From Botryllus schlosseri (lineage: Eukaryota), in NCBI GenBank assembly GCA_051294905.1, contig CM119371.1:9798001-9862000 (forward strand): a stretch of 64,000 nucleotides of DNA, in the 5' to 3' direction. A program made the position numbers and the translations under genes. Below are positions 1-22,100 of this stretch, piece by piece. Below the pieces are notes generated by a model, which saw only the letters and a list, made by a program, of their open reading frames with translations, was not told the DNA's origin and searched no databases. Numbering within the stretch: position 1 is the first letter of the stretch; each line of letters opens with the position of its first letter.

Positions 1-917
1 TGACAAATTTCTCCAAACTTGTTTGAAAATAACAAAAAAACATTGAACAAGACATCCATTAATTAATTTCAAGGTAGGTCACCCTGAGACTAATCCTGAT
101 GCTGGTAGTGAGTACAGAGAGCAAGGCGTCGTTCTGTCCTGCCAGGCTAAATTTGATAAGTTTTGGAAATTAATTAAATTGTGTTGATTTATAGCCTAAT
201 TGAGGGCGAAACCGGGCAACCTATGTTGCATCTAAGTCTGTCTTAGGCAGTGCAGTTCGCAAGCTACTGACAAGAGCTGCCCGGCGCCACAAGCTTTAGG
301 CTACTGTCAAAGCTATGAAGCAATGAATGACTTACACGTGGGAATTGCTCTAAATTTACAAAGAATTTCAAAAATTTGCTCAAATGAAGTTGAAATCAGA
401 CTATACTCCGTTGAGCGCGGTTGCTATAGAGTTTGTATTTTGCAAACTTTCTTGAATATGGAATAAATTTCATCTTCATTAATCGTCTTCTCATAATGGA
501 TGTGAAACACATGTTCAGACACGTACAATTTATACTGACTTTGTCAATTTCTCGCGCCCCCCCTATACTGACTTCGTCAATTTTTTGCGCCCCCCCTGAG
601 AGCCTCCCGTGCCCCCCAGGTTGAGAACCCCTGGTATAGTGTGTTACATTACATGACGGATCATAGGGATTCTATTCTAGCTGCACCTTTTATTCGCAAA
701 CGGTGGAATTGGCAATGATACCATAATTTGGCGGATGAATAAAGTTATAAGCCTATAATGCAGTGGCTCTAACGATGGTTCAAGTTGGCATATTTTTATG
801 CTCCCTTCGTTTTAGTGATGTATTGGCATCAACCCTGCGAACGCGTTGTGAGGAATAGAAACGGGGACGTTGGAATTTCCTTCATTGTATTATATCGCGA
901 TTCGAGTTTCTCTAGAG

Positions 918-1160
918 TAGTGGTTCTCAACCCTTCTTTAGACACGCCCGTTTATGATAGTGAAAAATTTCGCACCCCCCTTATCGTGATATCACAAAAT
1001 CCAACCGGGATGCCAGCAACCCCAACATATTGTTTGATGGCATGCAAGGTTATGACTGTTGGTAAGAGAATTAAACTATATTAAATTCGATCTATATATA
1101 GAGAAACACGCTTGAATTGGAGGTAAATCGAGTAGAGACTCCCCAGGTTGAGAACCACTG
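918..1160. mobile_element. hAT (Charlie/Buster-type) MITE
   Basis: TIR (t/c)agtggttctcaacc; perfect 8-bp TSD ctctagag. Confidence 0.85.
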
Positions 1161-1782
1161 CTCTAGAGGCTGGAGACCTCTAATATATTTTCCATGTAAC
1201 CTATATATCAGAACAGACATCAGGACCTGGCCATCCAAGCACTGGTAGAAGCGTTTTCGTGAAATAGTTGAAATCAAAACGAGCGAAATTAGAAACCTTT
1301 TTATTGAGACACTAAATATCTTGAGATACATAGTAGCTAATTTGTTGCACATCTAAGCAAATAAATGTTGTATTTTCATCTTCTTTTTCTATAACAATTT
1401 TCGGTTAGTTTGTGCGAATGAAATTTATTTTACAAAAAAGTGCGAATGAAGCTCAAAAAGGTTGAAAAGCACTGGTCTAAGGCATATTGGAGAGATCACA
1501 CCTCAAAATGTCTTCAATCATTCTTACCGACTTCCCGAACATAAAACCAGCCCTCCTGTTCTATTATTGTCTGATGAATACTATCAATAAATATGGAAGT
1601 ATCCCTGAAGGAAGAGGAATTAAATTTATTTTCGTGTGAAACATCGAGGTGCTTCGACGGGACCGATTGATTATCGAGTCAGCACCACCATGTTGGAATC
1701 ATCACCACAATAGGTAGGTAGCGTCTTGTCATATTGATACTTCACGGAAACTAAAATGGTGGTTTACATGGAATTTACTCAC

Positions 1783-1885
1783 TCGTATTCTATAGGAGCT
1801 GCTTTCCTGGTTGTCATTTCTCGCAAAGATCAGTGTTGTCGATGGAGGAGTAGAACTACTGAAATATGTTGATCCGCATGGCAAG
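1783..1885 (-). CDS. Duplicated copy of inserted-domain exon 4: LPCGSTYFSSSTPPSTTLIFARNDNQESSSYRIR
   Basis: 9 substitutions in 103 nt vs 37668-37770, no indels, intact tttacctccag| and |GTGAGT. Confidence 0.7.
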
Positions 1886-2869
1886 CTGGAGGTAAAGAGA
1901 TCGATTTTTCAAGATGCAACACTGTCAGTTCCAGTAATTTTTATAAACGTTTGGGACGTTATTAGTGATATATTCATGCACGGTGAATCAATCATGACAA
2001 TCATGTTCACTGTTAGACTTTGATCAATTACAGCATCAATGTACTCGATGACGATGGCAACGGTACAAGGTACGACCATTATATACAGACTGTATTCTCT
2101 ATGTAAGTATTATATTATTCATGTAAAACGGTTTAGCATTTGGCTTTTTGCATCTGCTATTTCTTATATTTCATTTCTTCAGAAAACTCTGAACTGAGTG
2201 AGCTCTATTTTGCCCCTCGGAATGATGGAAGTTAAACCTCAACGCAGGTGAGTGATCGTTATAGCGCAGCCTATGGAGATGTTTTATATTTGCTGTCTTG
2301 ACGGTCTATTTATGTCGAAAATCTCAACTTTTGTTAGAAATGTGGTGGATAATACAGGCATTCTCTCATTTCCTAAGAATTGCTTCGCGGGCCGGATTGA
2401 ATCGACTGGCGGGCCGGATGCGACTCGTGGACGGTGTATCTGTCACCCCTGGTCTGGTGAGGTTCATGATGAAATAATATTGAATATTTTAACACCCAAA
2501 ACAATGCAATCTTCATATTTATCGTTCACAAACTTGAGCGAAAGTAGAGGTGAGACTGAGACAAGCAAAGTCTCACCTGTGATAGCGATCCGAGCTCTGT
2601 ATTTATATTAGTCGAACCCTAATGCCGCACTGAATCCGAAAATCCAATACGGTCGAATCCGCATAATTCGAATACACGACAACCCGGACATGGGCTTTAT
2701 TCGATCAAAATGCTCAGGAACAAAACAAAAGCGGAAAGTGTCGTTAACAAGCGCGCGATAATTTTTCACTCAGGAATCAACTTGATATTTTGACTCGCGA
2801 AGAACTCACGTATAGTTAAGTTACGCAATTTTGCGTGAGAATTAGAAATTTATTGCAGAACCATTAGAG

Positions 2870-3519
2870 CAGGGGTTACCAAACTTTTTATGGTCACGAC
2901 CTCAAATTTCGATTTGAAAATTTTCCGCGACCCCACCTCTCAATTTGTCGTTCGGATTACTAAAAATATGGTCAGCACCTTTGCCCAAACGTGGTCCATG
3001 TGGGAATCTGGTGACTTTATGCACAACAGTACTAGCAATTATGCAATTATGAACTCGTCAACATCCGTCAGTCAAGACTATAGCAACGTATATAGGTCTG
3101 TGTGACTATGTGAAATTTTGAGTCACTAAAAATACAGATAACGTTATATAAGTCATCAGGCCGCGACGAGCGCGTGTGTAGGCCTATATATTATACTGGA
3201 ACACTACGACACTGCCGGTCGCTTTTAGTTCTCATGGAAGGATAAATTAACGTCGTAAATTATTTATATACTCCTGACACTTTAATTTTCATAGTGGTGG
3301 CTAGAAACCAACATCACTTTATAGTAGGGGGCACTCCAAAATGACGCTCCGATGGATCTGATAGCTTGCTTGCAGAGTTCGCATTCCTCAGAGCCGTAGA
3401 TATCATCTGCTTAATTGTCATGCTCGTAATGGTAATTAGTATTCAACTTTCGTCTCCGCGACCTCAGAGATTAGGCAAACGACCCGTTTGGGTCGCGACC
3501 CTTAGTTCGTGAACCTCTG
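2870..3519. mobile_element. Non-autonomous hAT (Charlie-type) element
   Basis: caggggttaccaaac...gttcgtgaacctctg; TSD cattagag/cactagag. Confidence 0.75.
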
Positions 3520-4226
3520 CACTAGAGATACTATACTACATCTTCTGATAGTCAGTAACTCGATCATTTAATAAAATTATATTGATTCAAAAGAACTATA
3601 CAAATGCGATATATTAGGATGGTACGAACTGTCTGTCCTTAAGTAGGGGCTTAGCAAGAATGGAGAAAGAAGGTTTAACAGTAGCGGATAACAACTTCTA
3701 CAACACAAAGACAATTTGGCCTGCTTTGTACACAATTCCGACATATTTTGACCTAACGCTACACCTGGCAGAGCAATACCATATTTATTGAATCGTTTGG
3801 TATCAAAAAATCTACAATACAACTAACCAGAAGGTATAACTTTTTGGTTTTTCACGCGCTCAGAGCCAATTACTGCAGCTCGGGAGCTGCAATTCATTCA
3901 TTTTGCATCAGAACATTAGTTTTAATTCGTTGTCCGCCTAATTACTTTCCGCCTAATTCCTACAACGCCGTTACTCCGCTTGATTCGACCAAAAGTGAGA
4001 GGAACCAAATTGTCTGAATTGAAGTGGAGTCGACTGTATTAATATTGCGGAGTGGGCCATGCTACAAGTCGTCAGCTGCGGAATCACAAAAAAAGGATTA
4101 TCGGTCTGGTGTAAATGACCATTGTAGTCGACAAACCCCATGAATACCATAAACAAACAAAAAATACTCGTGCTCCAGACTCACTCGAAATCGCCAATGA
4201 ATGTCAAAATCGGCATTGTTACGTAC

Positions 4227-4954
4227 AATAATATTATTATCTTGTGATTTGTGAATATTGCACGAAGATCACGGCCTGATTAAATCACGTGATCACGGAT
4301 TGCGTAAGCGCGAGAGATAACACGACGCTCACATCGGCCTCGCGTGGGCTTCTCGGTTTTATAACTGTAGGTTGGGAAGGGGGATATTGAGGTTGGGGGA
4401 GTGTTAGGGTATCCCAAGATCCGGGTTGGATTACGCGGGTAGTAGGGTTGGGGAGGGTTACGGTAAAAGTTGGAATATCCCAAGTTTAGGGTTGGGGGTG
4501 ATGGATATTAGGGTTGGGGAGGGGACGGGGGGTATTAGGGATTGGGGAGGGTTAGGGTCAAAGCTCGGGTTATGGAATCCCAAGATTAAGGTTCAGGTGA
4601 GAGGCACGATACTCTCAACCCTAATGTCCACCACCTCCAACCCTGATATTGAGATATCCTCACCCCAACTTCGACCCTAACCCACTTCCTACTCTGATAT
4701 GTACCTTCCACCAACCCCAATATTCCCTCACATTCAACCCTAATATCCCTCTCCCCAAACCCTAATATCCTCCCTAACCCAATCCTAATCTCGAGATACC
4801 CTAACCCCAACTTTGACCTTAACCCTCACCCAACCCTACTATCTCCCCTCTCCGACCTACAGTTACAATAAGGAGCAGGCAACGCGCAATCCGTGATTTA
4901 ATCACGCCGCGACCTCCGTACAATATTGACAAATCACTTGATAATAATATCATT
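4227..4954. repeat. Foldback/palindromic element with G-rich left arm and C-rich right arm (degenerate GGGTTAGGG-like runs)
   Basis: Ends are inverted repeats (atattattatcttgtgatttgtgaatattgcacg / cgtacaatattgacaaatcacttgataataatat). 4370-4600 has GGG runs and 4610-4860 has the mirrored CCC runs. Confidence 0.75.
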
Positions 4955-5986
4955 AGTTTATTAATTCATATTAATAGTGGTTACAACATTTCATTTCAAA
5001 AGCTTCTTGGAGGTATTGATACATTGTATATATTTTGATACAAAATTTCCCAGAGGCCGAGTTCACTGGTAGTGGTTAAAAAAAAATTAGGAAATGTTTT
5101 CTTGTTGACACCACCTTTTCTAACTAACTAGTAACCCTGTTTATACATAGGCGCTAAACCCGGGTAGGCTGGATTTGCCACGCTTACTCCGTAATTATTG
5201 TATTATAGGCATACCCTCAAATTCGTAATCAGCACAACTCCGATGGCCAATTGTGTGGTTCGAAAAATATTGAAAACCATGCATCTCATAAAACGGGATT
5301 GATGCTTATGTGAGTTGAGCAATATACCTAATTAGTAATGAGACGAATATATAAGCGACGCCATAGGATATAACCATGAACTTGCTGCACATGTTGATTC
5401 AGACGCGCGCATGCCGTACGCCGAGAAACATGGTATCTTTTCTGGAATGGACGAGCAAATGCACGTTCTTCGTTGATAGTTTTTTAATCGTAGCGCCAAA
5501 TTGGATAGTGTGTTAGCGTTTTTGCCTGTGAATTGAAATTCATTCAAGCGCACGATCGTTTACTCCAGTATCGATTTGCGAACGTAAATGGGGAAATGGA
5601 TTGAAGCAGCCCAGATCGCTAATATAGTACGCATAGCTTACAATTGCCGCGATGTGAGCTAGTCAATGCGGTGTCCGAACCCTGCCCTAGTGTTGAATAT
5701 AAGAGGGCTATTAGTGATTGGATGCGCGCCTTCCAATTTCTAATCCTCCATTTTGTGTATTCATTCTTGTCTTCTTGATATACTCGTATTGTTGAAATGT
5801 CGCCTAATGTCACTTTCGAGATTGCAGATTAATTGGTTACAGTGCATGACGTTGAATTAAGTTCTCAGATATTGATTCACATCCTGATTGTCAGTGTCAC
5901 TAATTTTGAGTTTATTCGATTCGTTTGAAAGGGAACTCTCTATACTCCACTAAACTTGATCGACGATGGACGGACTGGTAACGAGC

Positions 5987-8546
5987 CAGTGATGAGCATC
6001 GGACGGACTCGGATGGCATTCGGACCGGATATTAGACGATTTTGTGGCAGTCGGATAGGACTCGGATATTATCACAAATATTTTTTCGGATATTGTCGGA
6101 TAGTTGTAACTTTTGATAGGATATTTCCGGATAGTTGTAACCTTATGTGAGATTTGATTACAGGCCTATAGAAAGAAGTCATCAATTCAATAACCAATTA
6201 CAGACAGCTGACACCTTGCGATATGACTGGTAGCAGTCTAAAAATGTTTGTCAAGAGTCCAAGATAATATAGATCAACTATTGCCACTACCATTCAAGAA
6301 TAGACAATACTATAAGATCAGCCATGTTATCAGATTTATTAGCTAAAACACAAAGTATACCATACTTGCCAGTCTAACGATATATAATATGTGAACTGAT
6401 AAAAGATGGTATGATTGGACATGAGCTCGCCTGACATGGTTATCATCAGTACGGTATTCTCGCAGAGCAGTGTCTGAAGTTCGCAAAATTGAAGGTATAG
6501 TTTCAACATCAGTCACAAAACTGCGTATGCTTCTCGCCTTCACATGTAGTTTTTTAACCCATTGCTGATGAATGTCACAATAGGGCATACAATTTCTAGA
6601 ATCCTCAAATTGTTGTTGTGGCAGTCTTCTGTAGATTGATATAGCGGTAAGTCAAATCCCTCTTTGCGTACTTGTAGCATGAATGATTTTCATGCTGCCA
6701 CCCACAGTAGCTGTATGATACCCTTTCGATCAACACTATACAGCGGTGCTTGTGCTATGGCACGATCTTTGGCTACCATGAGTCTTTCAGCAGTTCATGA
6801 TCATAACGGAATATATCCTGATGACGTTCAACAATGTAATAACTCCATTCTGTGAGAAGGTACTCCCAGTGTGGACTTGGACTTCTTGTCAGCTTGGCAC
6901 ATCGAGTTAACAGCTATTCACACACTTGCAGCCCGGTCAACCAAATAAGAATATGCATACAAACATGTACAAGTAACTTTCTGGAGTCAGATAATTATAT
7001 AGAAAAATATGTAAGAAGATATATAGATAAAATGTATGATAATTAATATAAGGATGCCTTGACGATACAGCAGCCTACCAGCCTCTTTGAAATCATTCAA
7101 GATACATGCATATCATACTAAGGCACACTAACAACATATAACAAGGCTATAAAATCCAGAATTCCTATATACCGTTACAAAGAAAGCAAACCTACTCAAG
7201 TGTCCTGCTTACTCTTCCCTTCCTTCAGCTGCTATATTTTCTCCAATATGATTGACGGAATCAATCATCCAGAACCACTGAGCCATACAAGAAAAAGCTG
7301 TTAGTTTTTTTGTCAAGCAATGGTCTGTTAAGTAAATTTGATTTCAGTTAAAGAATTGTGAAAAAAGACTTTGGCGTGATTATGGTGCTTTTCCGTATGA
7401 TTTCAACGGGAGACCATGTAAACAGTTTGAAAGTCAACGCCAAGGAGTGTTGATCAGTACGTTAGTGATGCGTCATATCTCTTGAGTGGAGCTCCATCAA
7501 CTAGTGCATAATGTGCATTGCATTATTTGAAGACCTTGAATGTTGTCAAACTCCTCGTCTGAGTGTCGATTTCAGCTATGATTCCGTACTGTCGGAGTTT
7601 CGTTTCTCAATTATAATGGATTGAAGAAAGTCGACGTCTTGAGAGATAGCACAGCCAGAGTGGAGTGTAGAGGGATTGCATCCGGATTTATGGGACACTG
7701 GCTCTGCTGAATGCTATAATTTCTATGTTCAAGTGAAACACCACACGTTATCAAGTGGTACAATGAACCTTACAAACCATATCCAAAAGGCCAAGGATAC
7801 AGCACAGTTGAAGATGAGTTTCTTCTCGTCCAATAAACAAGTCGGCAAGACAACTACTGACCAGCTACTGGAGAGGAAATTTGGACAGAATGTTGTACAT
7901 TCAGGAATCAGGATGGTGCTATTATTCACATCTTGTGTGACACGACTATAAGCGTCATGCTCGAAGCTTTGAACTGATTGACCAAAGGTATTATAAGCAT
8001 CAGCAAGTTGCTACTAAACAGGCCTTCACGCCTTCCAGCACTTGTGGGCAAAATGTGGCTTATCTGCATCTAATATTGACCATCTCCCGATTGTGAAATT
8101 CCATGCTCACAACTTGCTACTATTACTTCTTGATATATATTGGGTGATATGGTTAAATGCCTGATTGTTACATATGGCTATGGCCTAATAATCTTTGTCA
8201 TTTTACATTTGCTTTTGATCGAGATACCACTTTCATTCACACACTTACTTCAAATTAGTAGCGTTGTTTCTTTGCGTTAACTTTCCCATAAATGAAATTC
8301 CAATTTTTGTTCATTCCATAGATACAATTAGTGATCTTCTTGTGCAGAACTGTAACTAAGCTCAGCTGTACAATTGATATTCTGCGATGTCATTATTCGA
8401 TAAGGATTTTCCGGATTCTTGTAGGAGATTTCCGGATAAATTCGGATAGTTGGATGAGATTATCCGGAGTCGGACGGATAGTTCCGCAGACACCAAAACT
8501 GTCGGACGGATTCGGATTCTCAAAATCCAACATCCGCTCATCACTG
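5987..8546. mobile_element. Non-autonomous hAT element (Ac/Tol2-like) with tcgga subterminal repeats
   Basis: TIR cagtgatgagc...gctcatcactg; perfect TSD taacgagc; BED-finger-like remnant HTLSSGTMNLTNHIQK at ~7740-7790 (+). Confidence 0.85.
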
Positions 8547-9108
8547 TAACGAGCGCACAAATACATTTGGTAAAAATTGGATTTTTGCTGATAAGGTCGC
8601 GACATGCGGTCATTTCTGCAGTTACATCTGAACAAATCGCACCATTTCAAGATTAAATTGGACTGTATGGCTTGATATTAACGAGCGCAGTACCGGCAAT
8701 AAAACATGACGTCACTGTTTTAATGTTGTATCATGTGTGTACAATGTACAATGCACATGCAATGGCAAGGAGTAAATTGCGTTCTCGTGCGGATATGACG
8801 TCATCTACAGACGACACGAAGTAATTATCAGGTCACAGGACTTTGCATACCCCACAAAATGATGATTCCTTGCGATGGTTACAACCGAGCGATAGTTGCG
8901 GTAGCCGAAGCTAGTGCCGAAGCAGTGGTATCAATGCTATCTGGAGCTTGGAGCCGGAGCTAATTCGTAATCGAAGAGAGCTCCGGAACCGGAGCCGGAG
9001 CAGTTAAAAATTTACGACTGCTCCAAAGCCTTGGTTGAGCCTTGGCGAGGTAGCACGTAGTACTTACATATATTTTGGTGCCAAATACATTCTCTTATCC
9101 CACTAGAG

Positions 9109-10594
9109 CAGGGGTGTCAAACATACGGCCCGCGGGCCGCATCTGGCCCGCGAAGCCATTTCATCCGGCCCGCCAGACCATTTCTGGATAATTGAAGAAG
9201 ACGCATGCTAAGATTGCTCAGTTTTAGCAACGGTTTGTATTTATCATATAACATTACGACAGCAATCAGTCAGACGCGTTGTAGCGCGTTGCTTTCAATT
9301 GTTACGTATGAATGCTGCTAATCAGCAGGAATGAACAGTACACAGTTGCAAATTCGAGTGACTGGCATCAGCCGGATGGTGATACGCTTGTCGTTGACAT
9401 CGCATCTCGCCCGCTGGTGACACAAGTGACGACCGAACGAAATTACACTTAGTTAGTTTGCTACAAATTGCGAGCTCTTATCTCAGCGTGGGGCACTGGA
9501 GATTGTATCGACATGACGACAGTCATATTCCTAACGGACCCAGTTATTATTTTATCACGATATTCGTGGCTGGGAAATTCACATTCCGAAAATGGGAAAA
9601 ATTAAACGAGTGGATACTGAGTGCCGAATATTCAAACAAAAATGAACCGAGAGTTTTTCATTCATAGAGGTGGACGCGAAACCAGTATGCTTGGTTAGTA
9701 ATCAGCAAGTTTCTGTCCTCAAAGAATATAATATTCGACGCCACTACGAGACTCACCATAAAAGGAAATACGGAGATTTCAAAGGACATTCACGAAGTGA
9801 CGAAATAAAAATACTTAGGGCCCGCCTGAAGATCAGCAATCCACCTTTACCCGCGGCCGGGATATAGCTGAAGCATCTGTGATGGCAAGCTGCCTTATGA
9901 GTTGGTTCCGGCATCCAGGCCATATGCTGATGGAGAGGTGGTAAAAACGTGCATGTTGAAGGCTGCGAAGGTAGTGTGCCATGAAAAGCGGCACGCATTT
10001 GCCAATATCAGCCTTTCAAGAAACACGGTCGCGAATAGAATAGCTGACCTATCAAATGACTTGGAAAGCGAATTAAAAGACAGAATTAAAATATAATATA
10101 TATCGCATTTTCAGTGGCGATCGATGAGAGCATCGATGTCACAGATGTTACCCAACTGGCCATATTTATTAGGGGTGTTGATCCGTCGTTACAAATTACT
10201 GAGGAATTGCTTCAATTCCTTCCCATGACCGACACTACAACAGCGAGTGATATTTTCATCGCACTCGTTGGAGCGCTTAACAGGGTGGGGGTAGTCTGGT
10301 CCCGTGCCATCAGCCTGGCTACTGACGGTGCGCCGTCGATGGTCGGAAAGAAGACTTGCCTGGCCACGAAATTTCGGGAGAAGGTACGTATCGCGAACGG
10401 CGGACAAGACGTATATTCGAGGGGTATAGCTTATCCCCGCAACGTTAGTATGTTTACTCAGTAAACTGTACGTGTATGCAATAAGCCAGTAACTTCATTT
10501 TTATGTGTGTTGAAACACATTTTACTGATCCGGCCCGCGAGACATTTGAAGGTCTGAATCCGGCCCGCGACCCGAATTGAGTTTGACACCCCTG
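9109..10594 (+). mobile_element. Internally deleted hAT (SPIN/GTF2IRD2-like, Buster group) element, copy 1
   Basis: TIR caggggtgtcaaac, perfect TSD cactagag; frameshifted transposase remnants KPVCLV...KEYNIRRHYETHH, SLSRNTVANRI, AIDESIDVTD, LATDGAPSMVG. Confidence 0.95.
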
Positions 10595-11341
10595 CACTAG
10601 AGCTTATCTCAAACATACCTGACCATACGTTGAATAAAAAACCAATAGCATAGCTACACGCATTCACCAGTTACACTACAGTGAGGGACATCTTCTGATC
10701 AGTACAGGGTTTGGTGTCAGTCAAAATGTAGCATCAGTTTGTAGATGATACGACGCAATAATGAAATTTAAAATCGAACTTAAGTAGGATTATTGCCAAT
10801 GTTTAGACTGTGAAGTTTAAAGAAACATCATTTCTCTCAGGTGGCTTTGCGTCCCCGCCAAATGCGTTCACTCCCCTAATAGGAGCGCGCTACCCAGTTT
10901 GAGAACCACTGACTCAGAGGAATGACAGGAATTTTAGGACTGTTTTCACGAAGTATCATCAATAATTTTATTTTCACAAAATTCAAGTTAAGCCCAGCAT
11001 TTTCGTAGCGCTTAAGGTAAAGTAGATATGCAGCGAGAAGCATGTTTCTACGTAAGTATCAGTGAATATAATATAGGCACCGGGATTATTTCTGAAATAT
11101 ACAATCGGTTTGACCAATAGAAAGTTGTATATTTTTCATGATTATGGAAAAACTGTCGAAGTATAGAAATATTGAAAAATATCCTAACAATACATGTAAA
11201 TTCTAATACCAATACCACACTTGCACATTTCCATATTCCATACAGAAATTTCGTTTCATACCATACGATAATTCTATAACATATCATTCCATACCACACT
11301 ATATGCCCTGCGGGTGACAGTAGGAAACAAATAATACTTAC

Positions 11342-11397
11342 GTCACATTCCTTCCGTATAACGCATTGCCAGACCGACTGCTGCTTCTGATATACAC
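11342..11397 (-). CDS. Duplicated copy of inserted-domain exon 3: VYIRSSSRSGNALYGRNVT (paralog, alternative exon or pseudo-exon)
   Basis: Same 56-nt length and intact aag| and |GTAAGT sites as 49330-49385; flanking intron sequence is homologous. Confidence 0.7.
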
Positions 11398-11911
11398 CTT
11401 CATCAATACATATTGAGTTCATGTCAGATAAATTCAATTTTTAGTCCTACACTTATATATACACTTATATATATCAATTTTAATCACGATGTTTCCTTCT
11501 TCTCTGGTTATGATTACAAAAATTATGGAATATCAGAAAAGTATGTAAATCAGATAGCAATGGTTATCACGTAAATCTTTACATCAACTATATTGTGATA
11601 TTTTGCACGAAGACAAGAAAACAATATTAGTCAGTGCTCTACCTTTTTCACTTCGCAGACAAGTAAAATTTCGGAAAATATTTGGCGGACCGGTGGACTT
11701 TCCTAAATTGAAATTAACCAAAAATATTATGTATGCAACCGCTTTTTGCAAGTATATTGTTCTGGAGAGTGACATTTTCAGAGTTTTGATCGTAAATAAT
11801 TATGTTCACGATGCCATCCATGTGATTTTATGGTTTTGAGTTTGCTGAGTCGACCGCCGAGAGTCGTTTACAGCTTTTCGCGTCGAAGACCGTGGATTTA
11901 ACCGTCTACGC

Positions 11912-13933
11912 CAGTGGTTCCCAAACTTTTTCCGTCTGAGGGCCAAATTTAGAATTTCAGAGTACAGTCGGGGCCGCACGAATACTACGGCTATGAAACG
12001 GACCCAAACAGTCATCATGGCTATTTCGGAGTAGTTTTATGGCGCTGGCGAGATATCAAAACTGTACACTGTTTACCCTACTTTATCTGCTGCATTGGGT
12101 GTCCGTTGAGTGAATCATCTTTGCTCGCCTAAACGCGCGAAGCGCTAAAAATTTCTTTAGTTTCATGACTGAATCGGTCAATATGATCGGGAATTGCATG
12201 CTATCAATTTTCATCCTGTCTCTGTTCACGTATTATGATTTACCGGTAGAGCTGAGTGAGGTGTGTTTGAAAAGGTATGGGCCCCCTCAATAGTAATTAA
12301 ACCTCTCCGGGGGTATAATGGTATATCCGTTGGCAGGAAAGTAACAGCACTTCGTCATGACCCCGGGCTACCATAGGGTGATAAACTGACCCCGCATCAC
12401 GTTGTTTGCCTTTGCCACTAAATTAAAGTTGTACTGTTTAGTGAGACAGCGCGACGCGCGAATATTTCGATAATTCATGATAAAATAGGTGAATAAGATC
12501 GGAAATTGCATGGTTGTCCTCTTTGCCCACGTAATCAGATTTACCGGTAGAGCTGAGTGAGAGGTGTCTTTGCAACTGCAAACCCCGTAAAGTTAAACAT
12601 CTTCGGGCGGGCGGACCCCCAGGTATAACTTCTTTAGATGATGTTATTTCGTGACCTACTGTCTGCTATATCAAAAAATGTAGAATTGCCTAAACGTACT
12701 AAACTGAAAGATCACACGATTTCAGATCGGTATTCTTCACTGGCATATAATTTTCTTTCATGCGGGATGGTACTTGTCTTGTGACGTTCAGATTGCCAAG
12801 ACAAGAACATTCGTCGCCAGTCATTTAGGCGCCTTTATGGACAATTAAACCTATATGCATTTTGTTTATATAACGAAGTTTTTGGTCAGCAGAAAAGCAG
12901 TCCTTTACGGCCAGGCCTTTCTCGCTGCCTATCTTTCTGACACACTTCTTGGAGTAACATGTTACATGCCATAAAACTGTATATGTCTTGGTGCGTTGTG
13001 ATGCAGTCATGGCCAACGCTGATATGCCCATTTCTATAAATCTTGCGTATTTTTTCTTGGGGAAGGGTAGCCTATCCAATAATCAAGATATGTGGCGAAT
13101 TGAAATCGCGCCTAGCGCGAAAAAGTTTTGAAAAAGTTGCATGAATTTTCAAAAAATACTCCATAATTTATGCTAATTCACGTAATAATTTTGGGCCCCC
13201 TCAATTGGGGGGAGGTTTGGGGTGCGGCTGTTACGGCCCTGACTATAGGACAATCAATTATGCTGCTTTTAGCCGGCTAAGCAAAACTGGATCTCGGCGT
13301 ATTCAGCCGTGAGTCACGTGTTGTGCATCTAGTTATCATAGGGTTACCGTTACGTCCACTTTTAGAATGATTTGTCCTCTTTTTTGATTTTTTTTTTCAA
13401 AGTGTAGTCGGAGGACGTCCAAATGTATTATTTTTTTGAGATTTTGTCTTCTTTTTTAAGAATTTTGGTTACATATAGGGCCAAATTCGACTGATATAAA
13501 TTAATTCAGCCTTGTAGGAACGTCATGGCGGCTATTTCGGGAGCTGGACCGGAAAGTTGACGTTTTTTTTCAGTCAACCACCTGTTAATGTGAAATAAAA
13601 ACTGTATTTTCCAGGAGTTGGGCCTCTTTTTCTTTTTTAGTCAAGCCACCACGAAGTGGGAAAAATTTACCATTTTTCATGATTTTTTTCCGGTTTTGAA
13701 AGTTATCAAGACCTATTTATATCTATAGCTACTCCTCATTCAACTGGAAAATTAGGGCACATTGCATTGAAACAGCAGTGACGTAACGTTAGCAGTCTAT
13801 ACTCCAAGCAAGACTATTTTCTAAATTTAAATATTTTTTTTTCATAAATCGATTTCTTATTATATTTTTGGGGCCGCAAGAAGGCTATCTGAGGGCCGCA
13901 TGCGGCCCTCGGGGCCGCACTTGGGAACCACTG
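11912..13933. mobile_element. Charlie-type hAT element with nested repeats
   Basis: cagtggttcccaaac...ttgggaaccactg termini; contains a partial Blackjack-like MITE at ~13340-13700. Confidence 0.65.
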
Positions 13934-14138
13934 TTCTAGAGTCCCAGAGATAACATTTCAGGCAGCATGCGACTCCGTGCGAGGTGTGCGCTGCCCAAAT
14001 GATTGGCGGTGATGAAACCTTGAAATTTAATAACCGCCGCATGTTGGCCAAAACGTTTGGCATTTATATAGTTACTGCTCAGGCACCGAAATGACGAGCG
14101 CTAAATAGTCCAGCTCGGCAGTTTAAGCCGCTCGTATA

Positions 14139-16165
14139 CAGGGCTGTAATGACTCGAGTCACGATTTTTTTGTGACTCGACTTGACTCGAGTCATTTTCT
14201 TGAAATGGGAAAATGACTCGACTCGACTCGAGTCAATATTTGGATTGACTCGACTTGTACTCGAGTCATTACGCACGTACCCAAGTCATTGACTCGGCTT
14301 ATTTCATATGACTTGAAGATGATTAATTTGCGAATCGTAATGGTTAGATCAACGCATCTGACGAGTTCTGCCGACATCGCTATTTGTCACCACTGCTTTC
14401 GTTGCACTCGTCTGATATAAGATATGCCGCCGTAAAAGTAACAGACAATGGTACATAGTAGCAATGCATTGCACAAAATCATCCAGTGATGAAGAGGTAG
14501 TAGATCCTCCGCAATCAAAGTACTCAAGACTATACAATCCATCAATCGAAACCAAGTTCAATTAGAGCCAATGAAATGACTCAGATGGTCAAGTACTTGC
14601 AAGAGACTGATAAGCTCATGTGCGGATTTGAAGGGGATGATGCTTTGCATTTTGGGCGACTAGAAATAATGAGTATTCAATGCTCTTCAGTGTGGTTCAA
14701 AAATGCTGGGCAATTCCTGCATCTAGTGCACCAGTGCAACGTGTATTCAGTAGATGTGGATTTATTATAAGTCCCTGCCGCTTTAACATATCTGAGGATC
14801 TCCCTTTCACTTTAGTATTTTTTAAGTGTAACTCATTGATTTGATCTGCTGTCTGTGAAAACACACAATACCCTCCGTCCATTTGACGTTTTGTTAGGTA
14901 TGTGCATTTTGCACGTGAGTGATAATGAATGGCTAATGTTGCGTAATGTTTGTACATTAGGGCGGTTCAAAAATAACTTCTTTTTTATTCTACTGGGTGG
15001 CTATTTTTTAAAATTATTATGGTACATAAAAGGAATACTGGCTTAATTTTGAAAAATAGAATCAATGATATGAGAGGAGAACATTTTGGATTTGAAAATA
15101 AATAGAGTATTTTTAGTGAGAAATTATTTCATATAATATTATTACATATTAACTTGAGTGGCGATATAGCGCAGTGGTATGATCTGCGGCTGCAACACCA
15201 ATGGGTGCGGGTTCGAGTCCGACCGATGTCGACTTCAGAATTCCGATACCTAAGTGTTGGAGGTTTATCTAGGCTCTTCCTCACCACCTCATCCGCGTCA
15301 GCGGTGTATTACAAAAGCCTAGAGGTGGGCCGTGCTGTAAGTCGGCCGTTAAGGAAAATAAGAAGAATATCGGCCTGGTGTAAATGACCATAGTAGTCGA
15401 CAAACACCATAAATAGCACAAAACAAACAAACAAACCCTAATGACTTCGTTCTTCTAGTTGGAATTGAGTCAAATTTGTTATGAATCATATTTTTACACA
15501 ATATAACCATATCACGAGGCAGCCGGTAAAATTCGAATTCAAGTTCTTTTATGAGCATCCTTTTTGAGATTTTGTCCTCTTTTTTGAGAATTTTTGGTAA
15601 ATGTAGTGCAAATTCGACTAAGATACAGTAAATCAGCACTGAAGTAACGCTCAGGTGGCTATTTCGTGAGCTGAGCAGGAAAGTTGACCTTTTTTAAGTC
15701 AACTACCTGATAATGTGAAAGAAAAACTGTACCTCTGCATCTACATAAACATGCATATGTTGATTCTCTATCAGCTAATATCTACACGTGAATTCGTTGG
15801 TTATCTATAAGCTATTTGTGAGCTGTCGTCGATGTGCTCGTAATAAAAACTGAAGGCTTGTATTTTTGATGTATCAGACTGACGACAAGACAGATATTTG
15901 ATAAAGTTCTACGATTAGTTAAGTTATCATATTGGCGGCCTGTCTTATCTATCTGTAGCATCGGTAAATCGGGCCAGGAACTGTCCGTTATCTGCCTAAA
16001 TATACATGTGCCAAGACTCTGGTAGGGACAAAATACGCATGCTTGGCAAGCAAGGAATTCGATATCGCCCTAGCAGGATTGAGAACATAAGTTGAACATG
16101 ACTTCAATGCTGTGACTTGGACTCGGACTCGAGTCATAACACTATGACTCGAGTCATATGACAGT
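14139..16165 (+). mobile_element. hAT (Ac/ZBED1-like) remnant with gactcgagtc subterminal repeats and a C-terminal dimerization-domain relic
   Basis: ~14635-14835 reads DDALHF..RNNEYSMLFSVVQKCWAIPASSAPVQRVFSRCGFIISPCRFNISEDLPFTLVFFKCN across a frameshift; gactcgagtc arrays at both ends. Confidence 0.75.
15155..15436 (+). mobile_element. tRNA-derived SINE, full-length copy
   Basis: Pol III box A TAGCGCAGTGG and box B GGTTCGAGTCC, (aaac)n tail; further copies at 38200-38482 (+), 49625-49815 (-), and 3' parts at 4050-4160 and 42500-42590. Confidence 0.85.
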
Positions 16166-17352
16166 AACGACGTACTTCTACTTTTTCGTAGGTACTCAAG
16201 TAGTTTTCATCTATTTCTGGTACTTACTAAAGTACATCGAATTTTTGCTACTTCTACTTCTATTTCGTAATATTTTGTGATCTACTTACTTACATTTCGT
16301 TATCTTCAATTTGTCAAGTGGAAGTACTGTATCCCTCCAATCAGAAATAGAAACTGGGGAATTCTCGGGCTGTTTTCACGGAGTTGTAACTTTTATTTTT
16401 AAGAAAATTCAAGTGAAAGCCAGAATTTACGTCGCGCTTCACGCAAAGTAGATATGGAGTTAAAACTATGTTTTCACGGAAGTGAATACTATTTAGGTAG
16501 CAGGTTGCGTGATTCTCTTCGCCCTTCATTGTCGCCCATATGACATATTTCATCACAGTAAATATGGCCCATCATAACGCTTGAAACTATTAATTCGCAA
16601 TCTAGCATTTCCCATCAGATCGTAATCTAGAAGCCCATGGCGTGTCCAAATCTGGAAAAGTGTGCTCTGACTTTTTTGAGCGTTAGACCTGTTTTAGCCG
16701 ACCACCGTTAAAATTGTCTCGACAAAAGACATGGAATACATTTTCCGCTTTTTGAAGTATAGTATTGGTATTTCCCGATGAATTCGCAGTATCATTACTT
16801 AGAGTTCTAATTAGTTTAAGTTCTTTTGTCTGGAGAACATACATGTTTAAATTTAAAAGCAAGTGTAGCATCGCCGTCTATTTTCCGAAAATACAATTAC
16901 ACTACATGGTATTTTTTCGTTACGGGCGTGAAAGCATCTGAGGGGAGGCACGAAACCGTCTGAGATAAATAATGTTTCTTGAACTAGGAATGAGTGTAAT
17001 TTGTGCTAAAATTTTCAACAATAATCCTAATTATATTTCGACTTCAAATGTCATAATTGTGTCGTACAATCCACAATCCACACACTGATGCTAGATTTTG
17101 ACTGATATCAAACCTTGCACTAATCAGAAGATGTCCCTGAATGAAGTGAAACTGGTGAATGCGTGTTGCTGTGCCATTGGCTTTTGATTTGGCTTATGAT
17201 GGTCAGTTACGTTTAAGCTCAATTTGGATAGTAGAAGAGTTTAGGTACCAAAATCGCTAAAATATTTATGTGCTACGTGTCACCATTGCATATGATTATA
17301 TGTTTAACAGAATATCCAACAGGAAATTTACCGCCAGATCGTATAATTATAT

Positions 17353-17729
17353 TAGGGTTACAATACGTCCTCTTTTTAAGAGAATTTGTCTTCTTTCTGG
17401 ACTTTTTTGAATGTGTCCTCGGAGGACGCGCTTCTGTCCTCTTTTTTGAGATTTTGTCCTCATTTTAAGAATTTCGGTCATATTTACAGCAAATTTGGAC
17501 TGATATGCCGTAAATCAGCACCGAAGTGACGCTCCGGCGGGTATTTCGGGAGTTGGGCGGAAAGTTGACCTTTTTTTAGTCAACCACTTGACAATGTAAA
17601 GGAAGAAACGGTATTTTGGGCGCTGAGCCAGAAAGTTGACCTTTTTTTTTGTCAACCGACCGCAAAGTGTGAAAAAATTACCGTTTTTTGAGTGTCCTCT
17701 TTTCAGAATTCCAAAATATGGTAACCCTA
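17353..17729. mobile_element. hAT Blackjack-like MITE
   Basis: tagggttac...gtaacccta TIR, perfect TSD aattatat, tgtcct subterminal repeats. Confidence 0.85.
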
Positions 17730-18518
17730 AATTATATTCACCTGCTAATAAACCGAATTCCAAATTTGAGAAGTGTCTCAACACTCATAACCCCTTCCAC
17801 GCCACAAAACAATCAATTGGCTTTGCAAGCAATCTAGTTGCACTTTTTAATATATTTTGATATGACGATAAGAGGGGCGCGAAAATTTTCGCTGTCATCA
17901 AAGGGGGTGTCGAAAATTTTTTGAGAACCACACTTCTAAATATATATTGTCATTTGAATAAAACTATTGCGATACATTTCAAATACGGAAATATGAACGA
18001 AACAACGTGTGCTTTAATTTCAAACCACAAATAATCAAGATCCACACAGTAGAGACAGGACACTAATTGGTGATTCTAATTGAATAGTGCCGAGTAGACT
18101 ATATATAGGTTACTAGATAAGCAGCCTGATATGCATGTTATGTCGGATGCGCCAATGCACTTTCTCGAAACAAATGTGCCGTTTAGAATCATCCCATATG
18201 TGCTAAATAAATAAACACATCCATCCAACCTGTCATGGCATCCTTATGTTGGCGAGACTAACAGGATGACCATCCGTGCTAAAGTGACAGTGAAATAACG
18301 AACGCATAAGAGCTCCACCATAAGATGCTTTATTTGAGATTTGAGGCCAGCAGGGAACCTACATTCTCATGTTTCTAATTGTTAAAAATATACCCCATCA
18401 TAAATATAGAATATATGAAACAACTTCATGTTTAGCTTGAAATATTGTTATCAATTTAAATACATCATTATTCATCCCATTCAACCACTATTCCATACTT
18501 TTGCGAGAACGAGGAAAC

Positions 18519-18968
18519 TGGGGTTGCATTTGAAACAAACGGTGTTTTAAAACACCTTGTTTTAAACATGTTTTAAACAGTGTTTTAAACATAGGCCTTT
18601 AAAATACAAAATTGTGTTTTTTTGAGTTGTAAAATTATGCCATAATTGTGTAAATACTTTCCAAAAACATATTTTATGAGACTACGGACAATTACCACCC
18701 GATATAGCCGACGGATATCGATATGGGATGGTTAAAACCCTCAAAATAGTCGGTTCAACATTGATAGTACAGATATTTCGTCAAATGAGCTATATTTACC
18801 TTATATTTTCAATTGTCAATGTCAATCCACTCTGACGTCACAATTGCATATTCGTGGCGTCATGGCTTGAAAACAAACAACAAAAAACAATAAGCAACAT
18901 GTTTTAAATTAGGGCCTTGTTTTAAACATGTTTGTTATAAATTGATTTTTGTTTTAAATGCAACCCCA
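18519..18968. mobile_element. hAT-type MITE (gggttgcatt TIR) about 80 nt past the intelectin stop codon
   Basis: TIR tggggttgcattt/aaatgcaacccca; TSD gaggaaac/caggaaac; inverted sibling at 26170-26597 (TSD cgtgtacc/cttgtacc). Confidence 0.8.
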
Positions 18969-19045
18969 CAGGAAACAAAAATGATCGAGATCGTAATTTC
19001 ATTCTAAATCTGCGTGCTATATCTCACAACCATGAATACACTACG

Positions 19046-19149
19046 TCAACGATAAAATATCAATATAGTGGAACGGATATCTTCAAGTGAATGACCATAC
19101 GTAGTCGGACGAGTGGGGAAGAGTAATTCGCTTCCAGAGCCATACCATC
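19046..19149 (-). CDS. ITLN: Intelectin terminal exon: GWYGSGSELLFPTRPTTYGHSLEDIRSTILIFYR*
   Basis: Acceptor tgttttacag|; ends with the intelectin hallmark (I/L)L(I/L)FYR followed by TGA. Confidence 0.95.
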
Positions 19150-22100
19150 CTGTAAAACAGTTCAGAATAGGATATAGGCTAATATTGGTGCGAAATGGAA
19201 ACTCATACTAAAATACATAATAACACCTTTCTAAATTTACAAATATGTTCACAATAATTATTATATGTGTATCAATTTGCGGAGATGTGTGAGTTAAATT
19301 GACTCGCTCTGTTTTTGTAAATGGATATATTTGGTTTAAATTAATAAAAAGGGTCAACACAAAGGTCACTACCATTGATAACTGAGTTGTAGTCAATACT
19401 GCCAATAGAATACTTTTATATACGACAGCCCAACCGAGATCGAAATGGAGTCATGTCACTCGTGACTGTATAAGGTCGACATATCTGATATCAGAAAAGC
19501 CCGCCACGTCACTATAATAGTTTGCCTCAGAATATGCGACCGAGGTAAGGAAAACGATTTTCCGACAAATCACACATTTTAAGCTTCCATGCTCATTACA
19601 ATGAAAATCTGGCAAAAATTCTTGCCGTGGTAACACTGCGCCTTGCCAATTATTAAAAATAATAATACGTGGCAATTAGATACCTGCGAAATCACCACAT
19701 GTGCCGAATTGAGAGATGTCATTCGAAACTCCACCCACACAGACATATTCCGGTTGCATGCTCGTCACCCTACAGAACGCAACGTAGTTAAATATGAAAA
19801 GTTGGTCACGTGTGTTCATGAAATAGCGGTTTAAATTTCGTAAGGGATGATCAACTAGACCGGGGGTGGCCAAACAACGGCCATGGACACCGTTTTGTGT
19901 GGCCCGCGGAAGTCTCAAGAAAATATAACTCGTACGGAAAATGCTGATCGTTGCAGCGTCTTGACAAATCTTTTCCCTAATATATTTCGCCATGACAATG
20001 ATATCATAGTCTTACTATTATTTTTATATTATTGATGGCGCAATAGCCTGATTGCAAAGGCCCACGAATTTTCAAAGGTTTCAATTGCCAAACATTACAG
20101 AAAGTCGAAACGGAAATGGCATATTCGGATCAAGAGTGAGCTTTTAAATTCGAAAATCCATCAAGTTTATTACTTTTGGTGTTGTACTTGGGAAACTGAT
20201 TCGCACGTGTGTTGGGTAGATTCTAGGGATGGTGTGAACGTGAGGTTCACGTTCGTGTTCTGTGTGTGAACCTCGGAAAATTTGAGGTTCGGGTTCACAA
20301 CAGAACCTTGGTAGGTTCTGCACTGTGAACCTTTTTCATATATTGCAATTTTCACTTCACTACAACATCGTTGGTTCAAATTTATTGACTTTCAAATGTG
20401 GGCCACTCTATGCATGGAGCTGGCAACATAAACATTCAGCACCAAACGAGCATGCTCTTGAGTATATCCAAAATTTACTTGTATTGTTACAAAAGTTTGC
20501 TCGAAATATCCAGCTTTCCGTTTGTGCATATCTAGTGTCTCTGTGCTGTGAGCTTGAGCCGCAATCACATGACATCAAGAGCGACATACACTGTATTTTG
20601 TCAGCAAATGATCCTCATTCAACCAATCAATGAGATTGATATCGTCTTCTGATGTAAAAATCTAGCAGGCGTGCGGGGTCAATCTGACTACATGTGTTTA
20701 CTGTATCATAAAAAAAAAACAAATCCGTGCGACTGGGGTGTTGGCTATACTGCTGTATATCTTGTTAATCGGTAGCAAGTATAGAAACCCATTTTACACT
20801 CTGCTCAATATCCATGTGGCAATACTCAGACGCCGAATACATTGTCCGATCAGGTCGAAATTGTTGGCAAAGCGACGCAAGATACTGATTTTGTGGGATT
20901 ATTATATCATTTGTTTGCCTCAGTTGATACACTTGGCGACGTTTCGAACGTCAATATGTACTTCAGTACTGGCCCCGAGTCGTCGCTCGGCATCGTGTAC
21001 AGTAGATTAATATAGATAGGCAATCATCTAATTGAAATATGGGTTCAAATTAGCAATATGACGTCACGTGACGTCATGAGGTTCACGTTCGTGTTCACAC
21101 AGAACCTTTCAAAAAGGTTCACGTTCACACGAACCTGAACCTTTCAGAGGTTCACACCATCCCTACTAGATTCGTCCGTGAGATATGTGTAGAAGTAATT
21201 CATATCTATATTATCTATATACTGTAGAAGCGTATTTAAGGCAAGAAGATGCACAATAGTCATCATTTTGACCTGATACGTCAACCATTATTCTGGTAGT
21301 AATATACGCTATATAATTTCATACTCTCCTTGCCTTTCAGTATACAGTTGTGTGCCCTCTTTGTTTCAGGATAATTCAGCATCACCCTACCCAATCATAC
21401 ATCTTGACACTCAAGACACCAAGTGGACGGTGCACTTCGACGGGCTAGTGATAAATGACGTAGTAGATTTTACATATGCTTTGGCTCTCATTCTGTCACT
21501 GCACTGGGTATTCAATATCCAGTTCGCGCGTGGTGCGAATAACACTCTACATTTCTTGTCCATCTGCATTGCAAAAATCGAAACGCTGCGTATGCCGTCT
21601 GCAGTCGCTTCAATGTGTGATAAAAATTGATGTGCAGTTTTGAAATTGAGTTGATCATTGATATCCAAATTGGTCCGTTATGAAGTAGTTTTGCCTTTTT
21701 GGGATGCTAAAGTAGATTCTGCGTTAAGTGATTATGTTTTCAGCATACTTCATTACTTGACAGTTTTGACGCCGTAAAGTATAAATAGTCATGGAATAGG
21801 TTTGTACTGGACTTGATAATTTCCTTTCAAAACTACACGAGATATTGTCAAACAATTCATCTTCTTCAGCAGCAGCATGCTGTCTTTAGTTGACACGCTC
21901 ATGAGCTTGCCTTAAAACCTTTTACCTCTTCAATATTATTGCTTCTTGCCTGAATATTCGAGTTAGCGTGCTGGGTCTTCTGCAGGCCGAGTCATGCAAA
22001 CATTGCTTTTGCACAATTGCCTTTTCTAGTGCTGCTGTTTATTGTCCATACTGTGCTTGAGCCTGTATATATTGCCTGCTGATCTGCTGCAGTTGTTAAT

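Follow-up and report, generated by a model that had tools for sequence, protein, structure and literature searches.

A stretch of the Botryllus schlosseri genome of 64,000 nucleotides (nt), referred to here as the window and corresponding to C1:9798001-9862000 in the coordinates of an assembly of 495 Mb and 219 contigs, raises the question of whether a lectin gene can be joined by splicing to either of two 3' halves. The gene, which we call gene A, is an intelectin (X-type lectin) gene that runs on the minus strand from about 63.5 kb down to a stop codon at 19046, and 7.6 kb downstream of that stop, on the same strand, lies a duplicate, B, of its 3' exons. An earlier sequence-only reading had offered two explanations of B, namely that it is an alternative 3' half of gene A or that it is a 5'-truncated duplicate or pseudogene. 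In view of a frameshift, a lost stop codon, and the lack of 5' exons, the second explanation fits the present state of the locus best, and we put the probability at roughly 60% that B is a 5'-truncated tandem duplicate that was functional for most of its history and is now a pseudogene.

B is an unprocessed copy of the 3' two-thirds of gene A

The exons of gene A were located by tblastn with the tunicate proteins P0003 to P0005 and then by reading of the splice sites (Table 1). The product of the exon at 63364-63499, VYCDMQTDGGGWTLVASIHE..., matches the structures of Xenopus XEEL (4wmo), lamprey serum lectin (7e1e), and human intelectin-1 (4wmq) with E values of about 1e-12, and this exon supplies the N-terminal fibrinogen-like part with its YCDM..GGGWTLVAS motif. 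P0003 (568 amino acids; Styela clava LOC120335080), P0004 (593 amino acids; Ciona intestinalis LOC100183062), and P0005 are full-length, uncharacterised relatives, and in all three a large insert separates the two halves of the intelectin domain. The conceptual protein of gene A aligns with them from end to end and is colinear with P0003 and P0004 over its whole length, including the insert of about 230 residues; the insert-domain exons singled out in the sequence-only reading thus genuinely belong to a conserved architecture.

Self-comparison revealed 17 colinear matches of 76 to 84% identity that link positions 18373-50103 of A to positions -13285 to 11911 (negative coordinates denote bases to the left of the window). 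B is accordingly a 25-kb minus-strand duplicate that reaches 13 kb beyond the left window edge. It is an unprocessed copy, introns included, of the 3' two-thirds of gene A, and it holds all eight 3' exons, which encode the greater part of the insert domain plus the C-terminal half of the lectin, together with about 200 bp of 3' flank, the duplicated unit ending near 18373. Two of these exons, at 11342-11397 and 1783-1885, had already been recognized as intact same-strand paralogs of gene A exons, and this is borne out by their lengths (56 and 103 nt) and phases, which match those of the A exons, by their retained AG and GT splice sites, and by a frame that is open across exons 5 and 6 in both copies (VYIRSTRWSGYATYGRNVT/FPCGSTYF... 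in A and VYIRSSSRSGNALYGRNVT/LPCGSTYF... in B). Paralogs of the VHSY, VWNS, and FYR exons, which the same reading had proposed to seek to the left of the window, do lie there, as do all six remaining exons of B, and all 15 splice sites of B retain AG or GT. Exons of the two copies are 88.1% identical (768/872 bases). In the introns, identity is 82.7% (4962/5997 aligned bases), and gaps open at a rate of 14.7 per kb. Each copy also has repeats of its own, a 2-kb high-copy repeat (11912-13940) being found only in B and a 476-bp repeat (18502-18977) only in A.

In the alignment with P0003 to P0005, the protein sequence of B starts exactly at the boundary between exons 4 and 5, and it matches P0003 and P0004 from the insert to the ...LIFYR end. 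Exons 9b to 11 of B can be aligned in full with all three proteins, the frame being broken upstream in exon 8 and the end extended by the residues RRFVV. B differs from P0003 and P0004 in lacking the YCDM...GGGWTLV N-terminal half and in carrying this five-residue C-terminal extension.

Beyond B, on the same strand, C1:9645001-9765037 contains two more insert-bearing intelectin genes, C and D, both of them complete; the exons compared show 84% identity between the two. The 3' half of D is much more compact than that of A (about 8 kb versus 30 kb).

Frameshift in exon 8 and loss of the ancestral stop in B

Exon 8 of B is 133 nt long versus 134 nt in A, one base having been lost directly after the VWNSKHPS motif, and the resulting frameshift leads to a stop after 27 codons. 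The motif is conserved in A, B, and C and reads AWNSKHPS in D. At the far end of the copy, the TGA stop codon of A is CGA in B, which accounts for the added RRFVV; no C-terminal extension of this kind is present in A, P0003, P0004, or P0005 in the alignment. Over the exon blocks compared, the reading frame is open in A, C, and D, suggesting that base-level errors are rare in the assembly. Use of a downstream AG within exon 8 as a bypass of the frameshift was considered and rejected as the historical mode, since it would delete the conserved VWNSKHPS.

The sequence-only reading had named a frameshift in the downstream exons as a finding that would refute an alternative 3' half, and the one-base deletion in exon 8, with the stop to which it leads, is such a frameshift; because of it, B is not a cassette that stays open to its own stop. 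In the assembly sequence, B combines paralogy that includes the introns, missing 5' exons and promoter, and a disabling mutation, the features by which an unprocessed partial pseudogene is recognized. With its retained introns, its frameshift, and its lost stop, it resembles the unprocessed partial pseudogenes of tandem gene arrays.

The coding sequence of B has been under purifying selection

Between A and B, 244 of 290 residues are identical, and pairwise Nei-Gojobori estimates of nonsynonymous (Ka) and synonymous (Ks) divergence are 0.086 and 0.29, a ratio of 0.30. With C as the outgroup, 17 nonsynonymous and 15 synonymous changes were assigned to the A branch and 22 and 17, respectively, to the B branch (14 sites were unassignable); as about 77% of sites are nonsynonymous, neutrality of the B branch is rejected (P = 0.003), with a ratio of about 0.38 (95% interval, 0.19 to 0.76). 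When C and D were used together, the corresponding counts were 14 and 18 for A and 21 and 15 for B, with 9 sites ambiguous and 8 conflicting, and neutrality of B was likewise rejected (P = 0.008). Over both outgroup choices, the B-branch ratio is about 0.38 to 0.41. A single indel is present in 872 exon bases, where the rate seen in introns would predict 12.8 (P = 4e-5). Neutral evolution since the origin of the copy, with Ka/Ks near 1 and indels at the rate of introns, is thus not what B displays. Gene conversion was rejected as the source of the similarity between the exons, Ks (0.29) being not below the divergence of the introns (Jukes-Cantor, 0.20).

These data show that purifying selection acted on the coding sequence of B during most of the period after the duplication. 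B differs in this from copies that are dead on arrival, with a Ka/Ks of about 0.4 on its branch, a single indel instead of the roughly 13 expected, and no splice site lost, and this non-neutral pattern implies that B was in use, and its exons translated, for most of its life. A lone C-terminal half of an intelectin is implausible as a self-folding unit, and B must therefore once have had an N-terminal half attached to it, whether one of its own or that of A. We infer that B formerly belonged to a translated gene.

The 5' half of B is missing from the assembly

Homology between A and B stops at 11911, and the 2-kb high-copy repeat, which has many genomic copies at 84 to 93% identity, begins exactly there. 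Repeats that recur nearby or in other parts of the genome account for most of the interval from 11.9 to 18.4 kb. Tblastn searches of 11398-19045 with the four 5' exons of A and the N-terminal parts of P0003 to P0005 detected no intelectin 5' exons (best E values, 0.16 to 0.18), including no YCDM...GGGWTLV N-terminal half for B, and a same-size 5' part of the neighboring gene C, which served as a positive control, was found by the same queries with E values of 1e-9 to 5e-24. This agrees with the sequence-only reading, in which no copies of the earlier exons had been seen between 11.4 and 19 kb.

Exon 3 of A has three close copies in the genome, those of A itself, C (69% identity), and D (65%), versus four for exon 9b, those of A, B (89%), C, and D (79% each), and therefore no displaced 5' half of B lies elsewhere in the assembly; an orphan exon 3 close to that of A was found on none of the 219 contigs. 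The local array on the minus strand thus consists of A, B (3' half only), C, and D. Across the genome, 15 of the 18 matches to exon 9b have their own same-strand match to exon 3 at 9 to 66 kb upstream, the others being B, C1:10427590, and C5:21120450; the family thus does not, as a rule, carry spare 3' halves. The window contains no N, and neither do the flanks that were fetched.

One of these other matches, the exon 9b-like sequence at C1:10427590-10427748, has no exon 3-like match listed nearby. It may be another 3' half that lacks its 5' part, or its 5' exons may be too diverged to be detected.

Transcripts, protein databases, and polyadenylation signals

L009 and L010 denote stretches of flanking sequence to the left of the window. 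For L010:6600-9300, which holds 3' exons of B, 24 sequencing runs were listed, with no RNA run listed as containing it. Four raw-read RNA runs (X3, X5, X7, and X8) were aligned to positions 1-20000 of the window, with 6 to 13% of each run being read. Between 762 and 1000 reads were placed per run, and 94 to 100% of these continue for at least 20 letters that are unlike the stretch and therefore come from repeats. The bin containing exon 10 of A had zero depth in all four runs and that containing exon 5 of B a depth of 0 to 0.8, and none of the 15 RNA joints listed falls at 11397, 11342, 1885, or 1783. The A/B locus is silent in these four samples, which count neither for nor against either reading. 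A comparison of exon 9b of B with longer proteins gave 12 candidates, none with an E value of 0.001 or below, and no annotated or transcript-derived product of A or B, which is weak evidence.

The part of the A 3' flank that was duplicated contains no canonical polyadenylation [poly(A)] hexamer, the first AATAAA after the stop of A lying at 18334, a little beyond the point where A/B homology ends, and in B an ATTAAA lies 143 nt after the stop. This layout is suggestive and cannot decide between the readings.

Origin of B and alternative explanations

Two histories could account for B, and its structure fits both equally well. In the first, B would have arisen as a complete tandem copy of A, as with the neighbors C and D, and one later deletion would have removed the 5' half of the copy plus part of the 3' flank of A; B would then have started to decay, and no full-length lectin would be made from it in this haplotype. 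In the second, a one-step partial duplication would have extended from inside the intron between exons 4 and 5 to about 200 bp past the stop, and the exons of B would have been kept in use by splicing from the phase-0 donor of A at 57517. The first history is the most ordinary route, since it consists of ordinary events only and predicts the short, recent neutral phase with first disabling mutations that is observed. The second requires read-through of the 3' end of A and still ends in a frameshift in this haplotype. Recombination between repeats was rejected as the cause of the duplication, as the far end of B has no copy of the 11912-13940 repeat.

Several points weigh against the reading of B as a truncated duplicate that has become a pseudogene. 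A one-step partial duplication combined with splicing from the exons of A would leave an identical structure, and the sequence does not reveal if 5' exons ever belonged to B itself. The deletion in exon 8 falls at a run of two Gs and is read from one assembly only. The selection signal shows no significant difference between A and B (Fisher P = 0.33 to 0.81; P = 0.33 with C and D as outgroups), and any neutral phase of B must therefore be short. The four RNA runs, in which the locus is silent, give no support either way.

The strongest alternative, although we regard it as unlikely, is that some transcripts of gene A bypass exons 5 to 11 and the poly(A) site of A and splice the donor at 57517 to the acceptor of B at 11397, so that the same N-terminal part would be combined with a different insert domain and C-terminal half. 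The frameshift in exon 8 would then be an assembly error, a polymorphism, a haplotype-specific defect, or a very recent loss. Much of what the sequence-only reading had adduced for this mechanism has held up: A and B share a strand, the phase-0 donor at 57517 suits the phase-0 acceptors at both 49385 and 11397, and the set of 3' exons in B is complete, ends in a separate stop, and has an ATTAAA downstream of that stop. The long purifying selection on a copy for which the assembly contains no 5' exons, as well as the absence of a canonical hexamer from the duplicated 3' flank of A, also speaks for an alternative 3' half. Against the idea stand the premature stop that follows from the exon 8 frameshift and the loss of the ancestral stop, and the rarity of exon 9b copies without an exon 3 argues against a repeated family design.

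A precedent for splicing of this kind, and thus for the second history, is Drosophila PGRP-LC with its alternative clusters of 3' exons (PMC6191721). In that gene, common 5' exons precede tandem, paralogous 3' exon sets on the same strand, each encoding a recognition module of the immune receptor with its own end. The A/B locus is similar in having what could be shared 5' exons followed by tandem, paralogous, same-strand sets of 3' exons with compatible phases. It differs in that the B cassette is broken in frame, in that the swap point would fall inside the lectin fold rather than between domains, and in that A and B are known here from genomic sequence rather than from the RNA of isoforms. 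Competing RNA pairing of the docking/selector type was not detected either: pairing between the first 1 kb after exon 4 and the regions upstream of each exon 5 was no better than in shuffled sequences, the best duplexes being reached by 6 of 25 and 15 of 25 mononucleotide shuffles, in what is a crude and weak test.

It is more doubtful still that B belongs to an independent gene with its own promoter and one or more unrelated 5' exons, located in the 11.9- to 18.4-kb spacer or derived from repeats, the product of which would consist of a new leader, the insert domain, and the C-terminal lectin half. Purifying selection on B is compatible with such a gene, and open frames do exist within the 6.5-kb spacer. 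The spacer is, however, mostly high-copy repeat, no RNA joint into 11397 from positions 1-20000 was found in the four runs (in which the locus is silent), a C-terminal intelectin half would be unlikely to fold without the N-terminal half, and the exon 8 frameshift counts against this explanation too. Least probable of all is an assembly artefact, in which the 5' exons of B were lost or misjoined in the repeat-rich spacer, as the end of homology exactly at the repeat edge (11911/11912) might suggest, or in which B is an uncollapsed haplotype of A: the first is opposed by the lack of an orphan exon 3 and of any N, and the second is excluded by 17% intron divergence, a Ks of 0.29, and different repeat insertions.

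Coordinates and other features of the locus

Table 1. Exons of gene A, their counterparts in B, and the intervening sequence (positions in the window unless prefixed by L009 or L010)
Feature	Position	Strand	Remark
Gene A exon with YCDMQTDGGGWTLVAS intelectin motif (YCDM exon)	63364-63499	-	Not the first exon of the gene
Gene A exon 2 (KTNWENK...)	62411-62502	-	tblastn and splice sites
Gene A exon 3 (ASDVMVWHV...)	61759-61924	-	tblastn and splice sites
Gene A exon 4	57517-57656	-	Phase-0 donor at 57517; last exon boundary ahead of the duplicated part
Gene A exon 5	49330-49385	-	Paralog of B 11342-11397
Gene A exon 6	37668-37770	-	Paralog of B 1783-1885
Gene A exon 7 (VHSY...)	32339-32503	-	tblastn and splice sites
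Gene A exon 8, 134 nt	29173-29306	-	B counterpart 133 nt
Gene A candidate exon 9a	25920-25972	-	Inferred from phase and A/B conservation
Gene A exon 9b	25710-25881	-	tblastn and splice sites
Gene A exon 10	19684-19769	-	tblastn and splice sites
Gene A last exon, exon 11, ending ...ILIFYR then TGA	19046-19149	-	tblastn and splice sites
A 3' flank	18373-19045	-	About 200 bp common with B 3' flank, split by A-only 476-bp repeat 18502-18977
Spacer between A 3' flank and B, mostly repeats	11912-18372	.	High-copy element 11912-13940 and others
B, part inside the window	1-11911	-	Colinear with A 37470-50103; continues to 13285 bases left of window
B exon 5, first preserved exon, 56 nt, phase-0 start	11342-11397	-	48/56 nt identical to A 49330-49385
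B exon 6, 103 nt	1783-1885	-	94/103 nt identical to A 37668-37770
B exon 7	L009:3199-3363	-	AG acceptor, GT donor
B exon 8, 133 nt	L009:1084-1216	-	1-nt deletion between L009:1192 and 1193
B candidate exon 9a	L010:9155-9207	-	AG acceptor, GT donor
B exon 9b	L010:8944-9115	-	AG acceptor, GT donor
B exon 10	L010:7541-7626	-	AG acceptor, GT donor
B exon 11	L010:6930-7048	-	AG acceptor

The gap between candidate exon 9a and exon 9b is only 38 nt long and has GT..AG ends in both A (25882-25919) and B (L010:9116-9154). Either this intron is exceptionally small or the gap indicates that candidate exon 9a is wrongly modelled; in genes C and D, no exon 9a-like sequence lies directly upstream of exon 9b.

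Additional repeats were observed in and around the introns of the two copies. One repeat is represented by two 1.5-kb copies at non-homologous positions in the introns of B (9104-10601) and A (27329-28828); at 98.8% identity, these copies are young and arose long after A and B were duplicated. The intron between exons 5 and 6 of A contains a tandem array (46118-46827) of units of about 180 bp that are 86 to 88% alike, to which the sequence at 60691-60857 is related. In the intron between exons 3 and 4 of A, an open frame on the minus strand (59812-60147) contains ...IPAYADDLALL... and resembles a fragment of the reverse transcriptase of a retroelement. Within the spacer, RNA reads pile up at 14675-16008 in all four runs, to about 20-fold depth in run X5. 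Their many mismatches, adapter-like or poly(A) loose ends, and ill-fitting parts point to expression of other copies of these repeats rather than of this locus.

Conclusions

B is a partial tandem duplicate in an expanding array of immune lectin genes and, as such, a known kind of thing; the observation is real and well above chance. Its unusual property is the long purifying selection on a copy that is now without 5' exons. Should B be no more than a partial duplicate in decay, it would be one of the usual by-products when a family of immune lectins expands in tandem, and its main use would be as a caution for annotation, since gene-prediction programs may merge A with B or report B as a fragment. 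If, on the other hand, B were an alternative 3' half, a chordate intelectin would swap, or would have swapped until very recently, its insert domain and sugar-binding half much as insect PGRP-LC swaps recognition domains. The long selection on B makes the A/B locus a cheap and well-defined test case for cassette-type diversification of lectins in a chordate relative.

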